NCBI RefSeq assembly: GCF_042854845.1
Contig: NZ_AP031498.1
Coordinates: 4,918,600-4,982,599 of the forward strand
Origin: Maricurvus nonylphenolicus
Lineage (GTDB): Bacteria; Pseudomonadota; Gammaproteobacteria; Pseudomonadales; Cellvibrionaceae
Length of the DNA stretch: 64,000 bases
Direction: 5' to 3'
Part shown: one piece after another, positions 22,352-36,379 of the stretch
How positions within the stretch are numbered: the stretch's first letter is position 1
How the letters are laid out: every line of letters starts with the position of its first letter
Notes under the pieces: generated by a model
Databases searched by the model: none
Told to the model about the DNA's origin: nothing
What the model saw: the letters and a program-made list of their open reading frames with translations, nothing else
Made by a program: the position numbers and the translations under genes

Positions 22352-22900
22352 TTAAATCTCAAGAATCCCATAAGACAAGCGATAACAGCCATTATCTCCA
22401 GCATCAAACTCTATTTCATTAGATTTAGAAATATTCAACGCATATGTAAGAGGGTTAATCTCCTCTCTAAAGTCACCTTTATAAACAGACACTGAAGAGT
22501 TTTGGTGAAAAGCAGCCAACCCGATTGGGTCATGGGGATCCAATAGAATAGGAGCATCTTCCTCATACACCATGAAGCAAAATGTAGCCTTATTAGAATC
22601 ACAAGTTAAAGGGATACTGAGGTTCATGCTGAAAACTTCACCTTCTTCGCTGAACTCATTACCAAGGTGAATAATCCCATCAATAACAATAGAGTCATTA
22701 TCCTCAAATAGCCAAAATCCTAGAATAACTACCTCATCCTTTGAAGCCTCATTCTTTCTAACACAAGAAAGGCTTTTTAATTGCAGACTAACATCTTTAC
22801 TCTCATGAACGGCCCTAGATGCCGAAGAGATAACAGGAGTAGAAATAAATTTTCTAGGATTTACCAACCACTTCTCTATTCGATTTTTCAACTCACTCAT
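22352..22900 (-). CDS. hypothetical protein, last gene of the 12-gene cluster
   Basis: 182-aa ORF in an AT-rich segment. Co-directional with the cluster, 49 bp from the upstream gene. No motif recognised. Confidence 0.45.
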   Translation of the reverse strand: MSELKNRIEKWLVNPRKFISTPVISSASRAVHESKDVSLQLKSLSCVRKNEASKDEVVILGFWLFEDNDSIVIDGIIHLGNEFSEEGEVFSMNLSIPLTCDSNKATFCFMVYEEDAPILLDPHDPIGLAAFHQNSSVSVYKGDFREEINPLTYALNISKSNEIEFDAGDNGCYRLSYGILEI

Positions 22901-22949
22901 TGATCACCCTTTAATCACACTAAAAATTCTGAATGGCACTCAATCCAGC

Positions 22950-23540
22950 CTAAAGATTGCTTAGCCCCTGCTTGAAGATATAGGTTTTGAAATCCAGATC
23001 AACACTGTATTCGGGAATATATTCTAGATAATGCTCTTCAAAGGCCAAGATCATTTCCTCTTGGCCATGACCTGTTGCCTCAAAAATGTATTTACGTCCT
23101 TCATGTTCATAGACTAGCCAGGCATGACCTTCCAAATGGTTTTCGTGATCAGATTCTAAATAGCCAACAACAAATTCTGCTTTTACTCCCAAAAGAGCCA
23201 TCTTTCTCCAAGCCCAGAGAGCCTGATCTTCGCAATCGCCCTTTCGGGTATGCTCAAGGGTTACGGGGTGCTGCCAAAAGTCTTCCTGATTAAATAAGTC
23301 ACGATCTAAAATATACTCACAACCACTTAACCAATGGCATATCTCTTCCAGAGAATTCACCGTGACGCTACTTTCACCTTCGAAGTACCAGTCCCAACTA
23401 TTGTCATTGCCGTTACCAAAACAGTTACGGCTTATATAGAGCTCCCTTCTATCCCAAGCGTGCTCCAGAATTAGAGCATCATCTGGATACTTTTCCTGTA
23501 AATAGGGGCGAGCCATTTCCTTTAAGACATTTATGACCAT
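22950..23540 (-). CDS. transglutaminase-like / papain-fold Cys-His-Asp domain protein (tentative)
   Basis: GDCEDQALWAWRKM (Cys), then ~35 aa, then GHAWLVYEHEGRKYIFEATG (His and acidic residue). This matches the transglutaminase-like core spacing. Confidence 0.45.
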   Translation of the reverse strand: MVINVLKEMARPYLQEKYPDDALILEHAWDRRELYISRNCFGNGNDNSWDWYFEGESSVTVNSLEEICHWLSGCEYILDRDLFNQEDFWQHPVTLEHTRKGDCEDQALWAWRKMALLGVKAEFVVGYLESDHENHLEGHAWLVYEHEGRKYIFEATGHGQEEMILAFEEHYLEYIPEYSVDLDFKTYIFKQGLSNL

Positions 23541-23549
23541 AACAAGAAG

Positions 23550-24461
23550 CTATTTAGCTCTGAAATTTTCGAATATTGTTTTCAACCATCTCAGATCCTC
23601 AGGCCCTAACTTTGCCTTCTGATGCTGAGAATCATCCTCATAAACGTCTTTATAAGCATGAAAAATTGCGGTCTCAGTTAATTCTCGCCATCTTTCATTA
23701 GGCAGCTCAGATATACTGCCATTCGCCAGATTAGGATCAGTTAATGGGTCATGCTCTCTTTCATTAGTACGTAGAGCAAGCTCTAGCTCTTGAAGAATAG
23801 GGTTCACAACACGCAAGGTATCAGAGCTCTCAAACTGCTTTGTAATATTGACTTCTGCTTGACGTACTTCTTTTTCTAGCTGAATTTTACTTATCTTTTC
23901 TCCAGCAGGCCTTAAACCATACTTGGTTAAGATTTCAGCAACACCAGGAAGTATTGCTTTAGCCGCTATACCTGCACCGACAACTGGATTAACAATAGCC
24001 GCAGCAGCTCCGACCAAAAGCATGCCATAGGTCAGTTTAGCATCTAAAGCATCGATATCATTAGCGAGAGACTCTAAAGTACTTGGGGTATTCTGATACT
24101 TATCCTCAACAACTTCTTTCGCGCTCTCCAACATATAATGCTTAAGAGCAATTTCCGCATGCTCATTAGCAAAGTGGAACACTCTTCTTTTTGGTAGATT
24201 ATTTATCTCTGGGACATCATCAGGAAGGCACCTCATTGTATGCAGGGCAAACTTATATTCTGAGAGTTCGTAGGGGATTATAAAATAGTGCTTTTCATCA
24301 TATTCTGTATCTTGGTATTTATCAGACTTTTCTAAAGAAACAAACACAGGCAAGCCATTTACTATCTCTTTAACAGATGAGATGTTGGCAGTAATTTCTT
24401 CAACAGCCCTATCGAACAGAGGACTTACTGCATCAATTCCTTTTTTCAAATAGTGTTTCAT
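23550..24461 (-). CDS. hypothetical protein with a central glycine-zipper membrane segment
   Basis: 303 aa. GMLLVGAAAAIVNPVVGAGIAAKAILPGVAEIL is flanked by charged soluble regions. Confidence 0.5.
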   Translation of the reverse strand: MKHYLKKGIDAVSPLFDRAVEEITANISSVKEIVNGLPVFVSLEKSDKYQDTEYDEKHYFIIPYELSEYKFALHTMRCLPDDVPEINNLPKRRVFHFANEHAEIALKHYMLESAKEVVEDKYQNTPSTLESLANDIDALDAKLTYGMLLVGAAAAIVNPVVGAGIAAKAILPGVAEILTKYGLRPAGEKISKIQLEKEVRQAEVNITKQFESSDTLRVVNPILQELELALRTNEREHDPLTDPNLANGSISELPNERWRELTETAIFHAYKDVYEDDSQHQKAKLGPEDLRWLKTIFENFRAK

Positions 24462-24466
24462 AACCG

Positions 24467-24751
24467 CTAGATATCAATCCCTATATCGCCATCACCTCCC
24501 TTTATAGCTCTACCTATCCCTCTGACACATAGGGCTATACATCGATATGGGAGATCAAAAATAAGCTCTAGCACATCGTACCAAGCACTATCGCCGTCTC
24601 GCTTTCGCGGCCAAAGTATATGGACTATGATAAATCCAAGAATGGCCGCGATAAGCAAGCCCCACGAAAATCCATTCGCTATCAAATCAAATACCAGGTA
24701 TCCGCTAATACATGAAATAAAAATCGCGATTACAGCCCTTACATCATCCAT
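24467..24751 (-). CDS. small two-TM membrane protein (DUF350/YjfL-like?)
   Basis: 94 aa with two hydrophobic helices. Lies 5 bp from the upstream gene. Confidence 0.4.
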   Translation of the reverse strand: MDDVRAVIAIFISCISGYLVFDLIANGFSWGLLIAAILGFIIVHILWPRKRDGDSAWYDVLELIFDLPYRCIALCVRGIGRAIKGGDGDIGIDI

Positions 24752-24773
24752 TACCAGTTCCTCATCAATTTAA

Positions 24774-25010
24774 TTAGCAGACAGTTTCCTCAATTTTCTT
24801 GAGAGTGGACTTCATTTCTTCGGTAAGCTCACTGGTTTTGATGCGTTTGATGATATTACGAAGTACTCGGGTTTCGTTGGCATCCACTACGCCATCACGT
24901 AACGCGATATCGAAGATTGCCTGCAACTCTGAAGCTTGTAATGTCCCATCATCAGCAAAGCAATTGATTGAGCGGAAGGTCATTTCCAAATAATCTCTAT
25001 TTTCACTCAT
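24774..25010 (-). CDS. small helical protein, TerB-like / DjlA-N-like (tentative)
   Basis: 78 aa. Pattern ...DGTLQASELQAIFDIALRDGVVDANETRVLRNIIKRI resembles a TerB-type helical bundle. Confidence 0.3.
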   Translation of the reverse strand: MSENRDYLEMTFRSINCFADDGTLQASELQAIFDIALRDGVVDANETRVLRNIIKRIKTSELTEEMKSTLKKIEETVC

Positions 25011-25059
25011 ATTCCCTATTCCTTGTGTAGTTTTTTAGTGATTATGTTTTCCTAACAGA

Positions 25060-25593
25060 TTAATTATTAAAATTCATCTGTAAAAACAGCCTGATTTGAT
25101 GTTTCTCTGGGTGCTGATCTAACCACTGCTTAAAGTCATCCACCTTACTGAAATCAGATTCTCCTAATAGCTCCTGAAAACGCTCTTTCTGCGTATTTTC
25201 CTGCTTTTTCAGACGAATATTACGCTGCCAGGCATCGGTAAATATCTTGGGTAAGCGATCATGTAAATCCAGCTGCTTTAGGAGCTGCCATTCGCCTTTA
25301 TCCAGCCAGGCCTCGTCGCAGCCAGTACACATATCAATGCGGTTGGCAGTATCGACGCCCACCTGAAAACGGCTCATAAACCTGGAACACTTGGGACAGG
25401 TTTTAGCCTGCTCACTATCCTCGATAACAATATCTTCAAAAATATTATCAACAACCGGATTCTGATCCTGCCAATAGCGATAGTTCATCAGCGGCAGCAT
25501 TACGCCTTCACACTTATTACATCCCGCCCCCAATAAACCTGCTTCGAGCTCCTTTGGCTCCAGTCGATATCCCTTACACTGTGGACAATCCAT
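25060..25593 (-). CDS. double zinc-ribbon protein (zf-TFIIB-like CxxC pairs)
   Basis: CPQCKG...CNKCEG and CPKCSRF...CTGCDEAW, two Cys4 ribbons. Confidence 0.55.
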   Translation of the reverse strand: MDCPQCKGYRLEPKELEAGLLGAGCNKCEGVMLPLMNYRYWQDQNPVVDNIFEDIVIEDSEQAKTCPKCSRFMSRFQVGVDTANRIDMCTGCDEAWLDKGEWQLLKQLDLHDRLPKIFTDAWQRNIRLKKQENTQKERFQELLGESDFSKVDDFKQWLDQHPEKHQIRLFLQMNFNN

Positions 25594-25610
25594 TGGTATT
25601 CCCTCAATGA

Positions 25611-28600
25611 TTAACTTGGTTTGGCGATAGAGGCTTCAAGTTCACGTAACTGATTAGATATATTTTTCATTTTATCGTGAGTCTTGAGATCAATTTCCAG
25701 CTTCTTATCCATACTACGCACCAGAGGGAAAATACTGTGCTCAATGGTTTCTGCCAGTACTGACAGCATTTTATCCATTCCCGGTACCGGCTGATTGACA
25801 ACCTTCACATCAGGCTTGGCAGACTCGACGGCGGAGATAAGCTTTTCTAACAGCTGCGGCAAAGCTTCTGCCTCAGACTCTGCTGGCTTCTCGTCATTCT
25901 CAGCTTGGAGCTTTTGAGTAGCAGCACTACCTAATACCTGAATACCATCAACCAAATCAGCCAATTGTGCGACCACTTTGCCACCGGTATCAGCATCATC
26001 ACCGCCCATGGCCTTGTTACGCATAAAATCCTTTTTAATTTGCTGCCAACGCTGTTCCTGCTCGGCATCCATATTGCCGCGTAATTCCGCCAGTTTTAAC
26101 AGGTTATCCTCGGCACCGGTGGTTAGCAGCTGGGCTTCACCCAAGTAGTGATCGGCAATCATCTGCATCAGCTCATCCTGATTCATAACCGCCGAGATTT
26201 TTTCCGTCATCTTGTTCATATTGCGGTAACTACCCTGCAATTTGAATGACGGCTCTGTACGGTATTTATCATCTTGCGCGGCAGAAGCGATATATTGCTG
26301 ATTAATTTTCAGTACAACATCGCGAATCACCATCATCTTTTTAAAAATTTCGGTAATTTCATTGATTTCAGCACCGCTGTACTGATGGGATAGATCAGTC
26401 GTGGCCACACTTGCACCACCCGCCATATCAATCAGCTTGTAAACATCTCCCATTTCACGCACCGCCAATGGGGCCAACACCTGATTAGACGTCAGCGCAT
26501 TTTCGATATAACTCAGGGCAAACTGTTCATCCATGCCACCCAAAATATCACCCAAGTTATAAATATCAGCCCGGTTGGCCAACATGTCAGGGATTTTGAA
26601 GGCTTCACCGGATTCGGTGTAGGGGTTACCCGCCATCACCACGCAGAACTTGCGACCACGCATATCATAGGTTTTGGTTTTCTCTTTCCAAACACCTTCA
26701 ATACGGCGGGTACCATCACAGAGTGAAATAAACTTCTGCAAGAACTCGGGATCGGTATGCTGGATATCATCCAGATACAGCATAACGTTATTACCCATCT
26801 CCAAAGCCAGATTGAGTTTTTCCAATTCCTGCCTGGCCGTAGCATTAGGCGCTTGCTGAGGATCAAGGGATACCACCTCATGACCCAATGAAGGACAGTT
26901 GATCTTCATAAAGATCAAGCCCAACCGGTTAGCCACATATTCCATCAAGGTGGTTTTACCGTAGCCAGGTGGCGAGATCATCATTAACAGGCCCATTAGG
27001 TCTGTTCGCTTGTTTTCACCTACCGTACCCATTTGCTTGGCGAGGTTGTCACCAATCAAAGGCAGGTAGGATTCGTTAATCAAACGGTTGCGGACAAATG
27101 AACTGAGCGGACGGGCTTTAAATTCATTTAGCCGCAAAGACTCTTTCTCTGAGGTAATGATATCCTGACGCACCTGCAGGTATTTGTGGTACGCGGGAAC
27201 AACCTCATAACGGTGATATTCCAGTCTCTGCAGGAATTCATCCAGCGCGAAATTCAGGGTGCGATCATTAATGGTTTCATGATCCCCCAACAACCCATCA
27301 ACACTCAGCTCCAGATCGACTTCGGTAAAACGCCGCTCCAGACGGGCATCGGCATTAATCAACGCCGTTGCCTCGGGAATATAACGACTAAGATGAGTCA
27401 GAGATTTTTCATCCACCAACGCCTGCAACCAGGCAGTCGTTAAATTCCAACGTTCAGCAGGCCAACCCAGCATTTTTTCCAGAGACATCAAGTAACGCCG
27501 CCAGGTTGAATCATCCACAGAACGCTTCAGCTCTTCTACCAGCTGAGTTGCATATTTACTGCCGATAAATTCGACACGCTCACGCCCTAATTCCGCCACC
27601 AGGTAATCTGCCGCCCGGCGAATATCCAATGGCTTAACAGGCAAGGGATGCAACTCAACAAAGTGCTGCATGGCCAAACGAATCTCCCCGGCCAGTAGCT
27701 CAACAGCATCATTGCTGGCAAAAAGGGATTGCATCTGTAATGCCGACTGCGCCCTTTCCGGCCAGGTTTCATAGGAAATCTTTGCTCGCTCGCCATTGTC
27801 ACTGGCAAGCTTGGCTGTAGCCTGTGCGATATTTTTAATATTGGCCCAATAAATCTGTGCCAGGCCACGACTTAGGGGATCGTATTGCAGCAAGTCTGCT
27901 CGATCAAAGGCCGGTACAAGTTCTCGCAACAACGCGACGGCATCAGCATCGTGGATACCCTTCTCATATCCTTCTTTATAACGTGGCGCCGCAAATTCTC
28001 GAACCAACTGATTGATACGTTTATCGTCACGCAGGGCGTCACGCAACATATCCATACTCAGCTCTTGGCGCTGATGTTGTGCGGCATCCAGAATGAGCGA
28101 TGCCAAATACTCTGATCGATAAACCTTCGGTGTTTCTGATTCGAGGGTGATATCCCAGTATTGCCTCAGCGCTAACAAATCCGGATGGGTAATAGGCTCA
28201 AAATAATTCGTACCGGTGAGGTGCACATTCAATGCACCGTCACGGGGAATAATGGTTAGATCCAATTCCTGAGTATTGACTGAGAATTTATGTCTTGGCC
28301 CCAACTTAATGATATTGCCTCCATCTTCATAGATGTCGGATTTATCCCGCAAACTACGCAAGGCTTGCTCTTTAATCGCTTTATAGCGGGATTCAATATC
28401 ATCAGCTTTGACGGCACTGTCGAGTTCGCGCAGCTGCTCGACCAGCTCGCGGATTTTCATTGCTAGAGCGTCGGAGGCGAAGTAAGTGTTAAGCTCATCA
28501 GCCTCGGTAAATTTCAACGAGCGCTTTTCAATACTCCCCAAAATTCGTCCCGCCGCATCCGCCACGTTCTGGGCTTTTCGCTGGCGTTCATCTAGCAGCT

Positions 28601-30920
28601 TTTGCTTGTGCGTTTCGAAGGACTCATAGACCTCTTCACGCTTATCCATAATATCGGCAAGGAACTGGTCGAAGTCACTAAACTGACTTTCCAGCTCTTC
28701 CAATTGAACTAACAGTCGGGATAGCTGCTCGTCACATCTCTCAGGGGTAGAAGACATCCCCAGCGCATTGGTAATACTCTGTGAGAAGAGTTTGAACTGG
28801 GCACCGAATTGCGCCACAGCTTCAGCAGAGCCCAGGTCTTTTTGTTTATGCTTGGCACCCGCCTTGCTCTGATTAAGTTGTGAGTAGACCAGTGAAATAG
28901 CATCAATAATACGTGTTCTTACGGTAGCATCCTGGACTTTTAGGGTCGCCATTAATTCCGATAGGATATCCAACCCAGAGGCAGTATCCTCGATTAATTC
29001 AATCAAAGGCTCCAAAACAGCTATGGTTTTGGCATCTTCTACCTGCTGATTAATGTCCTTAATTTTGACCTGATAGGGCTCTAACGCCTTCTCATCGGAG
29101 AGAAACGCTACTGTTTGCTCACTTAAGGTATCCTCCAAGCCTCGTAATTGCTGATCCATTTCATCAATCCGAGCTATATTGATATAACGATACTCTCGAA
29201 TCGTTACCAAGTGACCGCGTTGACGCCTTAACTTGCCCAAAGCATCAACAAACTCTTCTGTCGTATCCCAGCTGTCCGGACGAACAGACTGCACAAGATC
29301 AGTTTGTACCTGCTCAGCTTCCTGCATGGTTTTCGCAGATTGCTGACGAATACTCTCTACTTTTTCAAATTCATCAATAACCAGATCGGCAGTATTCGCG
29401 ACCTCCCTGATGATTTCCGGCAGGCCTTCAAGCTCTGGTGCTTCTGTACCCTTTTCTTCCAGCCAATAGTGATCGTCGAATAATTTCTTTGCAGATTTAA
29501 CCAACTCTTCATATAAACGTGACGAGACCGACTGATTATCGATCATTCGACAAACGCTGTAGAGATCCGAAACGCCGCGCACCAATTCGGCATTACCAAT
29601 ACGACCGAAGAAGGTCTGACTGGCTGGCTGCTGACTGGCATATTCAGCGGAGACGTAAGGCGTCTGCCATATCTGCATAGGATGAACCCGAGTAGGTTCT
29701 CCTTCCGCAGAGAAGATTACCAGCTGACCATTTTCGGCTAACGCATAGCCATGACCATAAATAGGGTTCTGCAGCTGTTTTTCAATCAGGTTATAGGCAA
29801 ACAGCCCAATGACACCCTGCTCTGGCTCGTAGAAAACATAGAGTACATCTTCACCATTAGGAGAGCGAATGGCACGCTTAAACTTTAAACCCTCGACCTC
29901 TTCATCAAATGATTTGAATTCTCCCGTCTGCAGGTAATAGCCGCCAGGGAAAATAATACCGTGGTCTTCGGGGAGCTGGACACAGGATTCACCAATCGCA
30001 TCGACACGTAATACGGACTCGGTGAGCTTATTGAAGATATAGTATCGCCACTCCTCTTCCCGATAAGGACGAACCTTTAGCAGAATCAAATCGCCAACAT
30101 CGGAGAATGCGATCTGGGCATCATCAAGAGACTGGGTTTTATCCTCGACAGACTCACTAAAGATACCCAAACCATCTTCGGTATTATTTTCAACTTTAAT
30201 GGTTAGATCGCCACCGATGGTATCGATAAAGACGGTATCAAGAATATTAATGTGGGGATGCCGACCATGGACACTGTCTTCACGGGTAACATCTGTCCAC
30301 TCGAAGTCATAGGCCGGCGGCAGCTGGATGTCCCGCTCACCACGGTTATCGATATAGTTAATCGTTTTACCGTCGGCAGAAATAGACCAGCGGAAGACTC
30401 TGATATCTTCCATGCGCTCACCGATTTGAAAGCCCGCCAATAGCTTGCCGTTTTTAACGGTTAACTCAATCAGCTTGGTGTGCTTGTAGTAACGGTACAG
30501 TTCTTCAAAGTCGTTAACAAAACTGGTTTGCGTGAGAAAACTCTCTGTTGGGCTAGCAGGCTGCATATCATAGCCGGACTCACCGGACTGCAGAGAAAAC
30601 AAGGCAAAGACGTCTTCAACCCTGGTTTCCTTTTTTAAGCCGATAAAGACGTTGTAGCCAAACAGCAAGTGATCACCCACTTGCACAATATCCCTGGCAA
30701 TACAGTTATTGTCTGTACGTACCCGAACACGACCAACAACATTCATATCGGAGCTGCCAAACTCCTCTAGCCTTGCGCTGTTTAGCTCAGCTGCTTTGCC
30801 GCTCAGTTGTCGCCCCTGCTCAATCAGGCGCTTGCGAATAATTTCGTAAGCACCACCTTCCGCAACAGCGTTATCAACAATGCTCTCATCAACAGGTTTG
30901 GCGTTTTCTTGCTGCACCAT
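25611..30920 (-). CDS. giant (1769 aa) cytoplasmic protein: N-terminal ~450-aa beta-rich domain, long helical/coiled-coil middle, C-proximal AAA_5 (MoxR/dynein/McrB-type) ATPase module
   Basis: Walker A ISPPGYGKTTL near residue 1230, Walker B VMLYLDDIQ, and sensor region GNPYTESGEAFKIPDMLANRADIYNL. No signal peptide or TM segment. Tightly linked (92 bp) downstream of the flotillin gene. Confidence 0.8.
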   Translation of the reverse strand: MVQQENAKPVDESIVDNAVAEGGAYEIIRKRLIEQGRQLSGKAAELNSARLEEFGSSDMNVVGRVRVRTDNNCIARDIVQVGDHLLFGYNVFIGLKKETRVEDVFALFSLQSGESGYDMQPASPTESFLTQTSFVNDFEELYRYYKHTKLIELTVKNGKLLAGFQIGERMEDIRVFRWSISADGKTINYIDNRGERDIQLPPAYDFEWTDVTREDSVHGRHPHINILDTVFIDTIGGDLTIKVENNTEDGLGIFSESVEDKTQSLDDAQIAFSDVGDLILLKVRPYREEEWRYYIFNKLTESVLRVDAIGESCVQLPEDHGIIFPGGYYLQTGEFKSFDEEVEGLKFKRAIRSPNGEDVLYVFYEPEQGVIGLFAYNLIEKQLQNPIYGHGYALAENGQLVIFSAEGEPTRVHPMQIWQTPYVSAEYASQQPASQTFFGRIGNAELVRGVSDLYSVCRMIDNQSVSSRLYEELVKSAKKLFDDHYWLEEKGTEAPELEGLPEIIREVANTADLVIDEFEKVESIRQQSAKTMQEAEQVQTDLVQSVRPDSWDTTEEFVDALGKLRRQRGHLVTIREYRYINIARIDEMDQQLRGLEDTLSEQTVAFLSDEKALEPYQVKIKDINQQVEDAKTIAVLEPLIELIEDTASGLDILSELMATLKVQDATVRTRIIDAISLVYSQLNQSKAGAKHKQKDLGSAEAVAQFGAQFKLFSQSITNALGMSSTPERCDEQLSRLLVQLEELESQFSDFDQFLADIMDKREEVYESFETHKQKLLDERQRKAQNVADAAGRILGSIEKRSLKFTEADELNTYFASDALAMKIRELVEQLRELDSAVKADDIESRYKAIKEQALRSLRDKSDIYEDGGNIIKLGPRHKFSVNTQELDLTIIPRDGALNVHLTGTNYFEPITHPDLLALRQYWDITLESETPKVYRSEYLASLILDAAQHQRQELSMDMLRDALRDDKRINQLVREFAAPRYKEGYEKGIHDADAVALLRELVPAFDRADLLQYDPLSRGLAQIYWANIKNIAQATAKLASDNGERAKISYETWPERAQSALQMQSLFASNDAVELLAGEIRLAMQHFVELHPLPVKPLDIRRAADYLVAELGRERVEFIGSKYATQLVEELKRSVDDSTWRRYLMSLEKMLGWPAERWNLTTAWLQALVDEKSLTHLSRYIPEATALINADARLERRFTEVDLELSVDGLLGDHETINDRTLNFALDEFLQRLEYHRYEVVPAYHKYLQVRQDIITSEKESLRLNEFKARPLSSFVRNRLINESYLPLIGDNLAKQMGTVGENKRTDLMGLLMMISPPGYGKTTLMEYVANRLGLIFMKINCPSLGHEVVSLDPQQAPNATARQELEKLNLALEMGNNVMLYLDDIQHTDPEFLQKFISLCDGTRRIEGVWKEKTKTYDMRGRKFCVVMAGNPYTESGEAFKIPDMLANRADIYNLGDILGGMDEQFALSYIENALTSNQVLAPLAVREMGDVYKLIDMAGGASVATTDLSHQYSGAEINEITEIFKKMMVIRDVVLKINQQYIASAAQDDKYRTEPSFKLQGSYRNMNKMTEKISAVMNQDELMQMIADHYLGEAQLLTTGAEDNLLKLAELRGNMDAEQEQRWQQIKKDFMRNKAMGGDDADTGGKVVAQLADLVDGIQVLGSAATQKLQAENDEKPAESEAEALPQLLEKLISAVESAKPDVKVVNQPVPGMDKMLSVLAETIEHSIFPLVRSMDKKLEIDLKTHDKMKNISNQLRELEASIAKPS

Positions 30921-31012
30921 TTTTGTCTTCCCTTAACTACACAATCCCATGAAAGATCTTATGGCTGGCGCCAGGCGCCAGCTCGAACTAAACCAGAACA
31001 CTCAATGCTGCA

Positions 31013-32989
31013 CTAGTCTACTTCAGCAGTTTCTTCCTTCATGGAACTGAGGATTGAAGGGTCCAACAATGGCTTACCGTGTACAACGCGATCGATAAGG
31101 GTTTGAATGGTACCGCTCTTATCGGCCAGCCCATCTACGGCCTTACCAATAGACAGCGACTTGGCGAAATTATTAAAGAAGTGATCTTCGCCACCCACGA
31201 TATCGATCTTGGCTTTCTGCAGAGCAGTAGCCAGCACTTCAGCATTTTCTTTGGCGATATCCTTACCGGCGTCAATGGAGGCCAGCGCTTCTTTAAGCGC
31301 AGTCTCAAGGCCCATGCGGTATTCTTCGTGAGAGCGAGCTTGATCGCTCATGCTATTCATGGCATCAAACTTCTCAACCAAACCATCGGCTTCAGCTTTA
31401 AATTGCTCTCGAGTCACTTCGGCATTGGCCAAACCAAGCTCACGTTCAGCCTTCGCATCAGCATCACCTTGAGATTCAGTCACCTCCGCCTGTGCTTTAC
31501 CAACACCCAGTAATGCCTCAGCTTCTGCATTACCTTTAGCCTTAATGACATGGGCTTCTGCCACTCCTTCTTTTTCCAAGGCATCTGCTTTAGCTTCCTG
31601 TACTTTGGCATCCGCCAAACCAGGGGCAGCACGCTCAGCCTGAACACCTTCAGCCAATTTCTTCTTGGCATCGGCCTCTTTTGCCGCGGCCTCCAGTTCA
31701 GCCTGCGCCAGGGTAGTCACCTCAACAGCCTTATGCTTGGCGGATAGCTCTTCAGCTTCAGCCGCTTTCACCTGCTTAACCTTATCTTCTTCCGCAACCG
31801 CTTCAGCTGCCAATACCTGAGTTTGCTTGGCGCGATCAGCTTCAGAGACTTCACGCACCTCTTTGATACGCTCCTCTTCAATCGCAACCGTTTTATCAAC
31901 TGCTACACGCTCACGAATCACATTGGCAATTTCTTTCTTCTCAACCTCAACCGCCTTTTCTGCTTCAATCTTCTGCAGCTCAACCTCACGTTCACGGGAA
32001 ACAACTTCCAGATCGCGTGCGCGCGTTACTTTTTCTACCTCAATCACTACAGCACGCTGACGATTTTGCTCAGCAACCTCAATTTCGCGTTTCTGATTTT
32101 CAGTTTGAACAGCCAGATTCTGATCAGCCTCAATCGTAGCTGCCTCAGCCTTTTGACGCTCTTCTTCCTGAACCTTTTTGGTCTCAGCTTCTTCACGGGC
32201 TCGAATGGTAGCAACCTCACGCTCCTGCTTGGCCTCGGCGTCAGCCTGCTGACGCTCCAATTCCAACATAGCCTCAACGGTTTCTACATTTTTCTTCTTA
32301 ATTGCCAGCTCTTCGTCACGCTCCAAAATATTGGTACGAACATTTTGCTCTGCGGTCAGCTCAGTAATCTTTTTGATACCTTCGGCATCAAGAATATTAC
32401 TAGGATCCAGGGATGCTTTCGGCGTTTGCTCCAGATAATCAATGGCAACATCTTCCAACACATAACCATTTAAATCGTCGCCAATCACTTCTATGATCTT
32501 ATCACGAAATTGTTGACGATTTTCAAACAGCTGAACAAAGTCGATTTGCTTACCGACCGTTTTGAGTGCTTCAGAGAATTTAGCGTTGAACAACTCATTA
32601 ACTGCATCGCGATCAGAAGCGCGACTTGCACCGATGGACTTAGCCACTTTGAGAACATCCTCTGGAGTCTCATTAACACGCAAGTAAAATGCGACTGTAA
32701 TATCTGCACGCATATTATCAGCACAGATCAACCCATCTTTACCACGCCTATCAACTTCCATGGTAATCAAAGAGATACGCATCAATTCTTTCTTGTGAAT
32801 CACAGGTATGATCCAGGCCCCGGTAAAAAACACTTTAGGCCGACTACTTAGATCATTTTTGATTAAAGCTATACCCTGCTCCACCTTGACATAGAAGGAT
32901 TTAAAAAGAGCAGCCAATACCACCATAAACAAAAAGAAGCCACCAACAAATGTGACAACCCCACCCAATGTCGCTATTTCCTGAGACAT
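31013..32989 (-). CDS. flotillin-family SPFH/band-7 membrane protein (YqiK-like) with a long EA-rich coiled coil
   Basis: N-terminal TM helix, an SPFH domain, then about 300 aa of E/A/K/Q-rich heptad repeats. Confidence 0.8.
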   Translation of the reverse strand: MSQEIATLGGVVTFVGGFFLFMVVLAALFKSFYVKVEQGIALIKNDLSSRPKVFFTGAWIIPVIHKKELMRISLITMEVDRRGKDGLICADNMRADITVAFYLRVNETPEDVLKVAKSIGASRASDRDAVNELFNAKFSEALKTVGKQIDFVQLFENRQQFRDKIIEVIGDDLNGYVLEDVAIDYLEQTPKASLDPSNILDAEGIKKITELTAEQNVRTNILERDEELAIKKKNVETVEAMLELERQQADAEAKQEREVATIRAREEAETKKVQEEERQKAEAATIEADQNLAVQTENQKREIEVAEQNRQRAVVIEVEKVTRARDLEVVSREREVELQKIEAEKAVEVEKKEIANVIRERVAVDKTVAIEEERIKEVREVSEADRAKQTQVLAAEAVAEEDKVKQVKAAEAEELSAKHKAVEVTTLAQAELEAAAKEADAKKKLAEGVQAERAAPGLADAKVQEAKADALEKEGVAEAHVIKAKGNAEAEALLGVGKAQAEVTESQGDADAKAERELGLANAEVTREQFKAEADGLVEKFDAMNSMSDQARSHEEYRMGLETALKEALASIDAGKDIAKENAEVLATALQKAKIDIVGGEDHFFNNFAKSLSIGKAVDGLADKSGTIQTLIDRVVHGKPLLDPSILSSMKEETAEVD

Positions 32990-33106
32990 ATCATCTCTCC
33001 TTGAACTACCGTTTTAACACTGACCCAACCAATTTTTGACTAAGCCTTAAGAATCTACACTGCCCTGACATCAATATGTGTAAGAACAGCCCTTTAATCG
33101 AGAAAT

Positions 33107-33784
33107 CTAAGCATTAAACTCCTGCTCCGAAATAACTCGATAAACATGCTCTGCTTCAACATACTCAAGCAGAACCACTCTATCACCACGTTTGAATTCT
33201 TCGTCATTGTACGAGCGCACCTTGACGATCAAGCCAGCACCACCGTCCTCAACACTCGCCTCACCAAATGTCTTGCTCACCGTTGTAGTTCTAACCACTC
33301 CAACACGACCAATTACTTTTTTTTCCACTTCCTGATCCATTGCTTGAAACACCGGCCGAAGTGGCTTAAGGATCAGACCAGTCAAAAAAGCCGACACAAA
33401 TAGAGAGATAAAAAAGATCGGAACACCAAACAAATATTTCGTGAACGCAACGGGATCATAGCCTATAAAAAAGTAAACACCGTAATAGCTGAGAAACCAT
33501 CCAAATAGTGATATCAAAACCACTATAATCGGCAAAGGTACGCCGTTTAACCCTAAACGCAATAACAACCCGCCCAACACACTGGCAGCCGATAACCCAT
33601 CAGCAGGGCTGTATTCAGCCTCCGGCACATCAATGTCAATCACACTGAGATCCAGCAAGCCTAATACAGCAAAGAGCCCATAAAAAACGCTCAACAACAA
33701 GAAAAAAGTAAAAAACACCGTAGGAAAGGAAGTGATATTTTGATAGAAAGGATCCATCTGATCACTCAACAAAATTGCAAACAT
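33107..33784 (-). CDS. NfeD-like membrane protein (YqiJ-like) with a C-terminal OB-fold
   Basis: Several TM helices followed by a C-terminal block GRVGVVRTTTVSKTFGEASVEDGGAGLIVKVRSYNDEEFKRGDRVVLLEYV consistent with the NfeD C-terminal OB domain (the 117-bp gap to the flotillin gene is read from coordinates). Confidence 0.6.
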   Translation of the reverse strand: MFAILLSDQMDPFYQNITSFPTVFFTFFLLLSVFYGLFAVLGLLDLSVIDIDVPEAEYSPADGLSAASVLGGLLLRLGLNGVPLPIIVVLISLFGWFLSYYGVYFFIGYDPVAFTKYLFGVPIFFISLFVSAFLTGLILKPLRPVFQAMDQEVEKKVIGRVGVVRTTTVSKTFGEASVEDGGAGLIVKVRSYNDEEFKRGDRVVLLEYVEAEHVYRVISEQEFNA

Positions 33785-33849
33785 GCCCTACTCCTTAGTG
33801 CTTTACTTTCTTCTTATATAGATGCCCGCATTAGACGGACGACTTACTT

Positions 33850-34539
33850 CTAGCTTTTCTTACTTTTAATACGCTCTAAGATATCATCAGCGCTTTTTCC
33901 CGCCGGAGCTATACCAGCCTCCCGCAACTTAGCCTGCAGCGAAGAACCCGTAGTCTCCCCAGCTAATTCTTCAGCAGCTTTCATCTGCGCGGATTTCAGA
34001 GCCTGTTTCTCTTTAATTCGTTCAAGAGAATCCATTGCCGTGCGCATTTTTGACTGCGAACCACTGTGTCGCTCAGCAACAGCAGCCTGAGCACGCTGTA
34101 CATTCTCAGTAGCCTTCACCGTATCCACCTGCTGCTTTAAGCGTTTCAGGTTTTGCTCGGTTTGCTTGATAGCTGTTCGTAAATTACTCGCACTGGTAGC
34201 ATATCCCTGCTCAGCTTCCGACTCCTGTGTTAGCTGATTTTCCAAATCAGCAATCTTTTCAGCCACCTCGTGAGCCAGCGATTCATCACCTTTTTCCAGT
34301 GCTTTGAGCGCATAACCCTCATGCTCTTCAACTTGCTTGTGAATATCAGCACACTTCTTTTCTGCCAGTTTCTGTCTGGCCATAATATCAGCCAGACTGT
34401 CTTTCGAGTGCTTTAAATCTTCGGCTGCTTCGCGCACCTCCTGATCGAGAATACGCAACGCCTGAGTATCAACAATGGCTTCGCCAGCTTCATTAACACC
34501 ACCGCGCAAGGCCGTCATCATTTTGGACCAAATATTCAT
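33850..34539 (-). CDS. PspA/IM30-family protein (ESCRT-III-like; YjfJ-like paralog)
   Basis: The N-terminus MNIWSKMMTALRGGVNEAGEAIVDTQALRILDQEVREAAEDL aligns with E. coli PspA [40 protein letters not shown]. All-helical coiled coil, 229 aa. Confidence 0.8.
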   Translation of the reverse strand: MNIWSKMMTALRGGVNEAGEAIVDTQALRILDQEVREAAEDLKHSKDSLADIMARQKLAEKKCADIHKQVEEHEGYALKALEKGDESLAHEVAEKIADLENQLTQESEAEQGYATSASNLRTAIKQTEQNLKRLKQQVDTVKATENVQRAQAAVAERHSGSQSKMRTAMDSLERIKEKQALKSAQMKAAEELAGETTGSSLQAKLREAGIAPAGKSADDILERIKSKKS

Positions 34540-34551
34540 AACAATTTCCCT

Positions 34552-35181
34552 CTAGCTAGCCGCAACCTGGAATGTAAGAAAATCAGCATAGGCTTCCGTC
34601 GCCTGAATCACATTGCTGGCCAACACTTCGATTTCAAAAACCACATTCTCAAGAATGGAAGACGAACTCAACGCACCGAACATATGGTAGTAATCGGCAT
34701 CGGGGCCCACGTGATCCAAACTAATGGTGGAGAGCGGGAAGTATTTATGAGTACGCAATACCGCATCGTTAAAGGCCGCCACATCACTCACTTCATTAAC
34801 GGACCACAAAACCGCCTCAACAATAATTTGCTCACCGGACACAGTCAGAAACACCGGCAAATCGCCGTACTCATTCATTACCAGGTGTAACGCGGGCTCA
34901 ACCCCGTCAATTAATTCAACACTCGCCTTACCAGAACTAAATAACTCAACATCCTTGAGCGCCTCATACAAACCCGTGGTTGTCCACGCTTGATTACCTA
35001 CTGTCATAGCACTTACTCCTTTTAACCAATCTTCATCCACCTCCTGCCGCAACTGCTTTTCCATCACGGACAGCTGCTTGGCATTCTCTGGGCGGATCCA
35101 TACCTCTTTTTTCACCAGCCCCTGCTCACGCAGGCGCTTGCGGTATTCACGTTGATAATGTGCAGATGATTTTGCTTTCAT
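34552..35181 (-). CDS. YjfI-like (DUF2170?) protein, first gene of the cluster. It has a basic N-terminal extension and is translationally coupled to the PspA-like gene
   Basis: 12-bp gap to the pspA-like gene. The conserved yjfI-yjfJ pairing in enterobacteria suggests a DUF2170 assignment, which is not verified here. Confidence 0.4.
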   Translation of the reverse strand: MKAKSSAHYQREYRKRLREQGLVKKEVWIRPENAKQLSVMEKQLRQEVDEDWLKGVSAMTVGNQAWTTTGLYEALKDVELFSSGKASVELIDGVEPALHLVMNEYGDLPVFLTVSGEQIIVEAVLWSVNEVSDVAAFNDAVLRTHKYFPLSTISLDHVGPDADYYHMFGALSSSSILENVVFEIEVLASNVIQATEAYADFLTFQVAAS

Positions 35182-35197
35182 GAATTTAGACTAAACC

Positions 35198-35233
35198 ATT
35201 ACATGTAATACGGTCAAGAAATATTACATGTAA
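35198..35233. promoter_or_regulatory. two copies of the palindrome (A)TTACATGTAA(T), centres about 25 bp apart, immediately upstream of the cluster's first gene
   Basis: ATTACATGTAAT at 35198-35209 is a perfect 12-mer. TTACATGTAA sits at 35224-35233. Both lie in a 337-bp AT-rich intergenic region. Confidence 0.35.
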
Positions 35234-35518: not shown

Positions 35519-36379
35519 TTAATAAGGCAACAAAGGATGCTGAAGCGCGTCTGACACCTCCAGCACCAACGACTCATCCTCAGGATACAGCGTATTTATC
35601 ACCAACCGCGGCTCAGAGATATAACCCGTTGGCCCCATCTCCCCCACGTTCTGATTGACACTGAAAAAGGACTGCTCCTTGCCATCAATCACTACCGGAA
35701 TACGGAAGCTGGCCATAGGTTCGAGTTTGGCAGCGCGCTTCTGCCAGTCTTTGGGGATTTGCGGCAAAGCGGACAGACGATCAACAAGTGTCTGTACGCG
35801 TTTATCCTGATTGAGAATGGCTTCTTGCTGCAATGACATCAGCATTAATACCAGTGCATTTTCTTTAACTGGCATCAGCTCTTGTTTAGAAGGGTTGAGG
35901 AAAATTAAATCGTAATGATTAATGACACTGTCGAGCTCAATATCCGGGCAGGCGTTTTGAAAGAACTGCACCCAACCTTTGTTGACCATTAATAACTTGC
36001 CATAACTATCCATTAAAGTAGCCGGATAGGGATCCTGCGCTTTTAACGACAGCATCATGGCTTTGCGCAGCCATTTATATTCAGGCGCATAAAAGTCGAC
36101 AGGTTTGGCGACGGGTTTATAACCGGCTGACAATAACAGGTGGCAGCGGTCTCGCTCACCCAACTCGAGCACCTCCGCAATAGATTCTACCATCGCCTTA
36201 CTGGGGCTGGCCCGACCATTTTCCAAAAAGCTGATATGTCGGGTGGAGGCATCCAGGCTTAATGCCAGGGACTCCTGGCTTAGCCCATGCACTCCACGCC
36301 AGAACTTTAATAACTGGCCAAAGACCACATCCGGTTTATCAGAGCCGTTTTGTCCTGTTTTTACATCTGTCATAAGCAT
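35519..36379 (-). CDS. XRE-family HTH regulator with a C-terminal MmyB-like ligand-binding domain
   Basis: N-terminal HTH_3 (FGQLLKFWRGVHGLSQESLALSLDASTRHISFLENGR), a ~200-aa C-terminal domain, and divergence from an acyl-CoA dehydrogenase gene are all typical of MmyB-like regulators. Confidence 0.6.
   Translation of the reverse strand: MLMTDVKTGQNGSDKPDVVFGQLLKFWRGVHGLSQESLALSLDASTRHISFLENGRASPSKAMVESIAEVLELGERDRCHLLLSAGYKPVAKPVDFYAPEYKWLRKAMMLSLKAQDPYPATLMDSYGKLLMVNKGWVQFFQNACPDIELDSVINHYDLIFLNPSKQELMPVKENALVLMLMSLQQEAILNQDKRVQTLVDRLSALPQIPKDWQKRAAKLEPMASFRIPVVIDGKEQSFFSVNQNVGEMGPTGYISEPRLVINTLYPEDESLVLEVSDALQHPLLPY

Follow-up and report, generated by a model that had tools for sequence, protein, structure and literature searches.

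Organisation of the locus

A 64-kb stretch of the Maricurvus nonylphenolicus genome (the window) carries an operon of 11 co-directional genes on the minus strand, numbered here g1 to g11 in the order of transcription, with two copies of a palindrome upstream of g1 (Table 1). In the open reading frame listing of the window, the intergenic gaps from g1 to g11 are 12, 65, 117, 92, 17, 49, 22, 5, 9 and 49 bp. An earlier note on this DNA, made from the letters alone, gave the same range of gaps (5-117 bp) but counted twelve genes, although it named 11 products. A same-strand candidate for a twelfth gene, an MmyB-like helix-turn-helix (HTH) regulator at 35519-36379, was rejected, as it is not conserved with the operon. 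Position 35233, which the note took as the end of the gene array, is the end of the distal upstream palindrome and not the end of a gene.

The locus is the Maricurvus copy of a widespread and already described family, the bac operons, and not a new system.

Table 1. Genes and candidate operator of the M. nonylphenolicus bac operon (positions in the window).
Feature	Position	Strand	Basis or description
Palindrome pair	35199-35208 and 35224-35233		Two copies of TTACATGTAA; candidate operator pair for a BacA-like repressor
g1, BacA/YjfI-like, 209 aa	34552-35181	-	N-terminal MazE-like domain (~55 aa) and DUF2170 (CesT/Tir-like chaperone fold)
g2, PspA/IM30 (bacterial ESCRT-III-like), 229 aa; BacB equivalent	33850-34539	-	Pfam PspA_IM30
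g3, YqiJ/YuaF-like (NfeD-type) inner-membrane protein, 225 aa; BacC equivalent	33107-33784	-	hhalign; transmembrane segments
g4, YqiK-type flotillin (SPFH), 658 aa; BacD/PaFlo3 equivalent	31013-32989	-	hhalign against YqiK
g5, giant cytoplasmic ATPase, 1769 aa; probable BacE/PA3728 equivalent	25611-30920	-	DUF3686, DUF7902 and AAA/AAA_5
g6, double zinc-ribbon protein, 177 aa; recurrent accessory	25060-25593	-	Pfam Zn_ribbon_TFIIB
g7, acidic TerB-like/EF-hand-like protein, 78 aa; recurrent accessory	24774-25010	-	TerB match below cut-off
g8, peptide with two transmembrane segments, 94 aa; lineage-specific	24467-24751	-	Transmembrane segments
g9, 303 aa, central Gly/Ala-rich hydrophobic segment (143-171)	23550-24461	-	Marine Gammaproteobacteria family
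g10, cytoplasmic transglutaminase-like/BTLCP (LapG-like) cysteine-peptidase-fold protein, 196 aa; lineage-specific	22950-23540	-	Matches below cut-off
g11, hypothetical protein, 182 aa; lineage-specific	22352-22900	-	No family match

Relationship to described operons

Ravi, Anantharaman, Aravind and Gennaro (mSystems 2024; preprint 2020) have described a class of operons that combines CesT/Tir(YjfI)-PspA with YqiJ/YuaF, a TM-band-7-flotillin and a beta-propeller-coiled-coil-AAA+ protein, where YqiJ/YuaF is a protein with three transmembrane (TM) segments and PLD is sometimes present (PMC11237479). In their account the shorter flotillin-YqiJ-AAA+ operons are more widespread, Dokdonia donghaensis is an example of the full architecture, and ATP-dependent membrane remodelling is suggested for the PspA-AAA+ associations (PMC11237479). 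Domain and profile matches give the window the same architecture and gene order as this class. For this class, the published account mentions neither Zn-ribbon and TerB-like accessories nor an N-terminal domain and operator of BacA, and it does not assign the ATPase to the MoxR type; these points are taken up below.

In Pseudomonas aeruginosa, the first four genes (PA3732-PA3729) are known as the 'biofilm-associated cluster', bac (PMC2587700), and Wallart et al. (2024) extended the cluster to bacABCDEF by reverse transcription PCR and proteomics, showing that the genes are co-transcribed (PMC10948618). The order in bacABCDEF (PA3732-PA3727) is the same as in the window: BacA (DUF2170), PspA-like, YqiJ-like, flotillin (PaFlo3) and giant ATPase. 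PA3728 is listed as 'ATPase'. The primers that Wallart et al. used at the bacD/bacE junction encode EGDFFN, the C-terminal motif of g4, and PKNNCI, which corresponds to 'TENNCIARD' near residue 70 of g5, and the amplicon size fits; these encoded motifs indicate that BacE is probably the giant ATPase. Osmotic shock leads to accumulation of PA3731, a protein with effects on both biofilm formation and virulence; co-transcription, BacA-dependent repression and these phenotypes have been shown for P. aeruginosa only. The earlier note had regarded the system as undescribed, which does not hold in view of the Ravi et al. class and the P. aeruginosa cluster, but its account of the anatomy and its reading of the operon as a membrane-remodelling or stress system were right.

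The assignments of the membrane-associated products rest on different kinds of match. The g2 protein matches PF04012 (PspA_IM30) over its full length (E 1.6e-49; 168.9 bits, cut-off 33.9) and is a PspA/IM30 member, as the note had it. Neither g3 nor g4 has a Pfam match, and Band_7 was not detected in g4. Profiles of the g3 and g4 families were built from orthologues and compared with E. coli proteins by hhalign. The g4 profile aligns with YqiK over 416 columns (probability 99.9, E 4.3e-33), and g4 has a single N-terminal TM segment (11-29) followed by a long Glu/Ala-rich coiled coil; profile match and TM anchor together make it a flotillin/SPFH protein of the YqiK type, so that this assignment of the note is borne out by profile comparison rather than by Pfam. 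The NfeD/YqiJ-like assignment of g3 has weaker support than that of g4: the profile matches YqiJ with a probability of 82.5 (E 1e-5), and the protein has three TM segments, with a soluble domain at the C-terminus. Direct PDB sequence searches with g5, g4 and g3 returned nothing useful, and PDB profile searches returned only Walker-A-level matches and a non-significant match to flotillin-1.

The two halves of the operon have separate counterparts in E. coli, as the note had pointed out. The g4 protein is homologous to YqiK and g3 probably to YqiJ, and g1 and g2 belong to the YjfI (DUF2170) and PspA families; yqiJ-yqiK and yjfI-yjfJ are described in the literature as unlinked, and in E. coli K-12 no giant ATPase gene follows yqiJK. 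The joint operon, which the note thought undescribed, is the one reported by Ravi et al. in 2024. The pspA-ydjGHI system of Bacillus subtilis provides a functional precedent for g2, g4 and g6, since membrane placement of PspA there requires YdjI, an SPFH protein, and YdjG, a protein with a double Zn ribbon. It differs in having no giant ATPase, and YdjG is membrane-anchored whereas g6 is soluble.

Conservation of gene linkage

Iterative hidden Markov model searches with the 11 window proteins were used to examine 85 related loci (designated by L numbers where needed), 5 of them from protein look-ups and 80 from a genome scan. The taxa sampled were Gamma-, Beta- and Zetaproteobacteria, Myxococcota, Actinobacteria, a Clostridia metagenome-assembled genome (MAG) and an Acidobacteria MAG; P. 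aeruginosa is not among the loci. Homologues of g3 and g4 lie directly upstream of g5, on the same strand, in 76/76 loci with enough upstream sequence, and these span Gamma-, Beta- and Zetaproteobacteria, Myxococcota, Actinobacteria and the Clostridia MAG. Homologues of g1 and g2 are found upstream in 40/75 loci, and the PspA-BacA module is confined to the proteobacterial loci of the sample. The note had asked whether the giant ATPase always follows flotillin plus PspA; it does so for flotillin but not for PspA, indicating that the ATPase is a flotillin partner first. The linkage is conserved, and the note's reservation that it might be unique to this genome did not materialise. Three layers emerge from the survey: a universal flotillin-YqiJ-ATPase core, an optional PspA-BacA module, and a swappable 3′ accessory zone.

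The giant ATPase

The note described g5 as a 1769-aa cytoplasmic AAA_5 protein, and this is confirmed by Pfam matches to DUF3686, DUF7902 and an AAA/AAA_5 P-loop domain. Two AlphaFold models of the giant protein (predicted local distance difference test scores, pLDDT, 85 and 80) begin with an N-terminal helix, which is followed by a beta-propeller spanning ~60-420 and by long helices; a helical domain then leads to a single AAA+ domain, in which a beta-hairpin precedes the sensor-1 strand, and the chain ends in a helical tail of low confidence. Along g5, the propeller coincides with DUF3686 and is followed by spectrin-like helical repeats at ~570-860 (including DUF7902), a helical domain at ~870-1260, a single AAA+ domain, probably of the MoxR/AAA_5 type, at ~1280-1620, and the helical tail. 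For the propeller, the only matches are to generic propellers of the WD40 and prolyl-oligopeptidase kinds.

The AAA+ domain carries Walker A, Walker B, sensor-1 and arginine finger motifs. PPGYGKTT, DDIQH and PDMLANRAD are invariant in 84/84 homologues of the giant protein, and the sensor-1 motif AGNPYT was found by pattern search in 73/84. The invariance of these motifs points to strong selection on the nucleotide site. The Walker B motif (DDIQH) has Asp in place of the catalytic Glu in every member. Compared with the MoxR-class remodellers (CbbQ, NorQ, RavA, and the AAA_5 modules of midasin and dynein), g5 is distinguished by this DD in Walker B and by having a single ATPase domain that shares its chain with a propeller and with helical repeats of ~700 residues.

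The family is large, with more than 6000 clusters at 90% identity and, at E <= 1e-30, 593 clusters at 50% identity. In the genome scan it was present in at least 588 species, with ~70% identity across genera.

BacA and the candidate operator

The YjfI-like protein of the note, g1, matches DUF2170 (E 2e-52) and passes the NCBIfam BacA equivalog NF050185 ('biofilm formation regulator BacA'; 320.9 bits, cut-off 300, positions 1-203 of 206). The PDB entry 8q8o, a P. aeruginosa DUF2170 protein, matches only residues 64-203 of g1 (E 4e-42). This structure is P. aeruginosa BacA, 146 aa in length, and comprises the DUF2170 part without an N-terminal domain. PA3732 was given as 16 kDa by Mace (2008) and, taken with the 146-aa structure, this suggests that translation in P. 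aeruginosa may start further upstream than annotated. The long forms of g1 have in common an N-terminal segment of ~55 residues, KSSAHYQREYRKRLREQGLVKKEVWI.PE, which is highly conserved and gives sub-threshold matches to the MazE-like antitoxin family PF11455 (E 0.006-0.06) and to the plasmid repressor model UrfF.

The two TTACATGTAA palindromes lie 18 and 43 nt upstream of the g1 ATG, flanking a TTGACC hexamer, and are the only two TYACATGTRA sites in the window. In 1.92 Mb of related loci there are 52 such sites, nearly all ~31 and ~55 nt before the start of a long-form g1. At least one is present in 26/30 loci with the N-terminal domain in g1 and in 0/8 true short forms (loci with palindromes: L001, L003, L005-L009, L011-L013, L015, L016, L020, L022, L024, L025, L027, L029, L031, L038, L045, L046, L055, L073 and L081). 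The Pseudomonas loci carry the operator palindrome as TYACATGTGA. A search of the window upstream of g1 revealed no sigma-54 site, and a promoter consensus scan gave fewer promoter-like sites than in shuffled sequence.

The palindrome pair, at its fixed upstream position, and the conserved MazE-like N-terminal domain of BacA are apparently new here, neither being described, as far as we can see, in the papers on bac. Their co-occurrence leads us to predict that BacA is a direct autorepressor, acting through its N-terminal domain on the TTACATGTAA pair. Direct autorepression would account for the 6- to 13-fold de-repression of BacB-F that has been published for a bacA mutant (Wallart et al. 2024, PMC10948618).

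Accessory and lineage-specific 3′ genes

Beyond the ATPase gene, gene content varies between loci. The double Zn-ribbon protein of the note, g6, has two Zn_ribbon_TFIIB stretches in Pfam, with conserved Cys pairs (C3/C6/C25/C28 and C66/C69/C89/C92) and a WLD.GEW motif. It is found inside the operon in 14 loci, either after g5 or between g4 and g5. The next product, g7, had been called TerB-like; its own match to TerB (PF05099) is below the Pfam cut-off (E 0.0028; 18.3 bits, cut-off 24.4), although 8/12 of its relatives match TerB (best 5.8e-5), and 4 match EF-hand. The g7 family has the motif F..DG.L...EL...A.RDG..D..E.R.L and lies inside the operon in 13 loci. One or both of g6 and g7 are inside the operon in 20 loci, and the PspA module is present in 17/18 evaluable loci with g6/g7 versus 23/57 without (Fisher p 3.6e-5, not corrected for phylogeny).

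Other recurrent 3′ genes are those for rhomboid (14 loci), PLD (13 loci), TelA and an alpha/beta hydrolase; neither rhomboid nor PLD occurs in the Maricurvus window. The rhomboid protease gene directly follows that of the giant ATPase (L002-L006, L012, L014, L015, L017, L020, L035, L038, L044, L075). Among the 4 of these loci with gene calls, it overlaps the ATPase stop codon in 3 (L003-L005) and is separated from it by 9 nt in L002. Two Xanthomonadales loci (L032, 16035-17129; L066) have a gene for TelA (toxic anion resistance) and a ~250-aa gene of no assigned family after the ATPase gene; the TelA gene is another link to Ter-type stress genes. In the Pseudomonas species loci surveyed, rhomboid and/or PLD follow the ATPase and the 78-aa gene is sometimes placed before it, whereas Maricurvus has the Zn-ribbon gene, the 78-aa gene and four lineage-specific genes.

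Those four genes, g8 to g11, follow in the window. The g8 peptide has two predicted TM segments, in agreement with the note. Likewise, the Gly-zipper membrane protein of the note, g9 (303 aa), has a Gly/Ala-rich hydrophobic segment; it is identical to M. nonylphenolicus R50073_42790 and has 325 homologues. They form an unannotated family of ~302 aa in marine Gammaproteobacteria, with a central Gly/Ala-rich hydrophobic hairpin, and are usually solitary. For g10 the transglutaminase-like Cys-His fold has weaker support: matches to Peptidase_C93, Transglut_core and LapG are all below cut-offs (transglutaminase E ~7e-4), and the Cys of GDCED and the His of GHAW can both be read in the sequence. 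No family match was found for g11.

The G+C fraction is ~0.50 in the flanks and 0.47-0.49 over 26-32 kb, where g4 and most of g5 lie; over 22-26 kb, a segment that takes in the 3′ end of g5 together with g6-g11, it is 0.41-0.42. This low value would fit a later acquisition of the 3′ genes.

Proposed mechanism and alternative readings

We read the window as carrying a bac (CesT-like-PspA-YqiJ-flotillin-propeller-AAA+) envelope-stress operon with scaffold remodelling and autorepression as its inferred mechanism, and put the probability of this reading at about 0.6. The flotillin/YqiJ pair would form an oligomeric scaffold at the inner membrane, on its cytoplasmic face. The giant protein would dock on this scaffold through its propeller and helical arm, oligomerise through its AAA+ domain, and spend ATP on assembling, remodelling or clearing the scaffold and its clients when the membrane is under stress; the PspA polymer would be one such client in operons that have PspA. 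At the DNA, the N-terminal domain of g1 would bind the two TTACATGTAA palindromes, which lie in the 55 nt before the start codon, a stretch that must contain the promoter. The CesT-like domain of g1 would bind a partner, for which PspA or another Bac protein is the most plausible choice, and stress would thereby relieve repression, in a logic that would parallel PspA-PspF. The g6 and g7 proteins may be small subunits, adaptors or metal binders, that go with the PspA module. In its most specific form, with the giant protein as an ATP-driven remodeller of both flotillin cages and PspA polymers, and the module switched by the BacA DNA-binding domain on TTACATGTAA until stress titrates BacA, the model is offered tentatively, as possible rather than probable.

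A very large, strongly conserved ATPase family that is universally linked to flotillin is an obvious candidate for a part in the assembly and disassembly of bacterial flotillins and of PspA polymers. The predicted BacA operator would offer a simple handle on regulation. The Maricurvus locus itself adds only a lineage-specific tail to a system already flagged by others.

Several points weigh against the proposed mechanism. It is built on gene linkage and folds, from which contact of the ATPase with flotillin or PspA is inferred. MoxR ATPases are normally paired with a VWA partner, and none is present at the locus. The hydrolysis kinetics of g5 are uncertain, given DD rather than DE in its Walker B sequence. 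The DNA-binding role of the g1 N-terminal domain is a candidate one, drawn from sub-threshold matches and from co-occurrence with the operator, and the association of g6/g7 with PspA carries the phylogenetic caveat given above. Deletion of paFlo3 (bacD) in P. aeruginosa has only marginal phenotypes. Wallart et al. proposed a sigma-54 promoter and control by protein-protein interaction instead of direct repression (PMC10948618).

Other roles for the giant protein fit the data less well. The note suggested a non-orthologous analogue of the AAA ATPase that remodels eukaryotic ESCRT-III polymers; in this reading the protein would be a dedicated Vps4-like disassembly motor for the ESCRT-III-like PspA polymer. 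PspA is co-operonic with the ATPase here and in 40/75 loci, ATP-dependent membrane remodelling has been suggested for such associations by Ravi et al., and the niche is open, as a 2025 review finds that a Vps4-like ATPase appears to be absent in bacteria. However, PspA is not beside the ATPase in about half of the loci while flotillin always is (76/76), g5 does not combine an MIT domain with a nearest relative among AAA folds of the classical clade, and its probable MoxR/AAA_5 type is a different AAA+ class from Vps4, so that the idea is weakened and a motor dedicated to PspA appears unlikely. Beyond ESCRT-III/Vps4, the combination of an SPFH scaffold with an AAA+ machine resembles HflK/C-FtsH and mitochondrial SLP2-PARL-YME1L by analogy only. 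SPFH, AAA+ and rhomboid proteins together recall the last of these, but g5 has no protease domain and belongs to a different AAA+ clade, and the window has no rhomboid gene. A role in DNA repair, implied by the database name of g5, is extremely improbable. It derives only from the Pfam description of DUF3686 ('ATPase involved in DNA repair') and the NCBI names taken from that text; no nuclease, helicase or other DNA-binding or DNA-processing domain was found in g5, its context holds no DNA-repair genes, its invariable neighbours are membrane proteins, and a search of the literature library on DUF3686, PF12458 and DUF7902 found no papers. With neither fold nor context behind it, the NCBI/UniRef name 'DNA repair ATPase' looks like a propagated misnomer.

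The envelope-stress reading has also to be set against an anti-phage or conflict system, likewise raised by the note, in which a membrane-associated sensor would be coupled to variable 3′ effectors (PLD, rhomboid, transglutaminase-like peptidase, TerB, Zn ribbon). PA3728-PA3732 are up in all phage-infected P. aeruginosa samples, yet such induction is equally expected of a phage-shock type of stress response. The 3′ end does vary, with hydrolase-type genes in different genomes and partners of the TelA and TerB type, and the Teredinibacter operon has an integrase and a transposase downstream; on its other side, though, it adjoins dnaA-dnaN-recF-gyrB. PADLOC v2 gave no meaningful match to a known defence family (only PspA coiled-coil noise and a Walker-A-only match to IetA), and the core is broadly distributed and highly conserved (~70% identity over 1769 aa across genera), unlike typical defence genes. 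The supposed effectors, g8-g11, are themselves not conserved with the operon, and g9 is solitary elsewhere. Together these findings make a defence role decidedly unlikely. It is separately quite unlikely that g8-g11 are functional, system-specific effectors, as the note's term 'effector-like' implied, rather than passengers. They are on the same strand as the core and tightly spaced (5-49 bp), and a 94%-identical relative (L001) has all six genes in the same place after the ATPase. Among the 85 related loci, however, that relative alone has in-operon homologues of g8, g9, g10 and g11, all being absent from the other 83; in Colwellia, Microbulbifer and Psychromonas the g9 homologue is solitary, its context being unrelated and lacking g5, g8, g10 and g11; no relatives of g10 were found in a metagenome scan; and the G+C fraction drops across the tail relative to the flanks.

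Neighbouring genes and other loci

A convergent Fe-ADH (iron-containing alcohol dehydrogenase) gene lies beyond g11, the last gene of the operon, and no clear terminator was found after g11 by consensus scan. On the other side, the MmyB-like regulator (HTH_31 and MLTR_LBD; minus strand) is 337 bp upstream of the operon. It is also found near the operon in the closest relative, and the linkage is not kept elsewhere.

In Teredinibacter (L002, 17604-21915), the integrase and the transposase, which is of the IS110 type, are found just after the 78-aa gene, and dnaA-dnaN-recF-gyrB is just upstream of the operon. A conserved gene of ~116 aa without a Pfam match is inserted between g2 and g3 in five loci from Betaproteobacteria and Thiodiazotropha (L039, L064, L068, L079, L080), and the same gene follows g5 in Methylomonas (L042).

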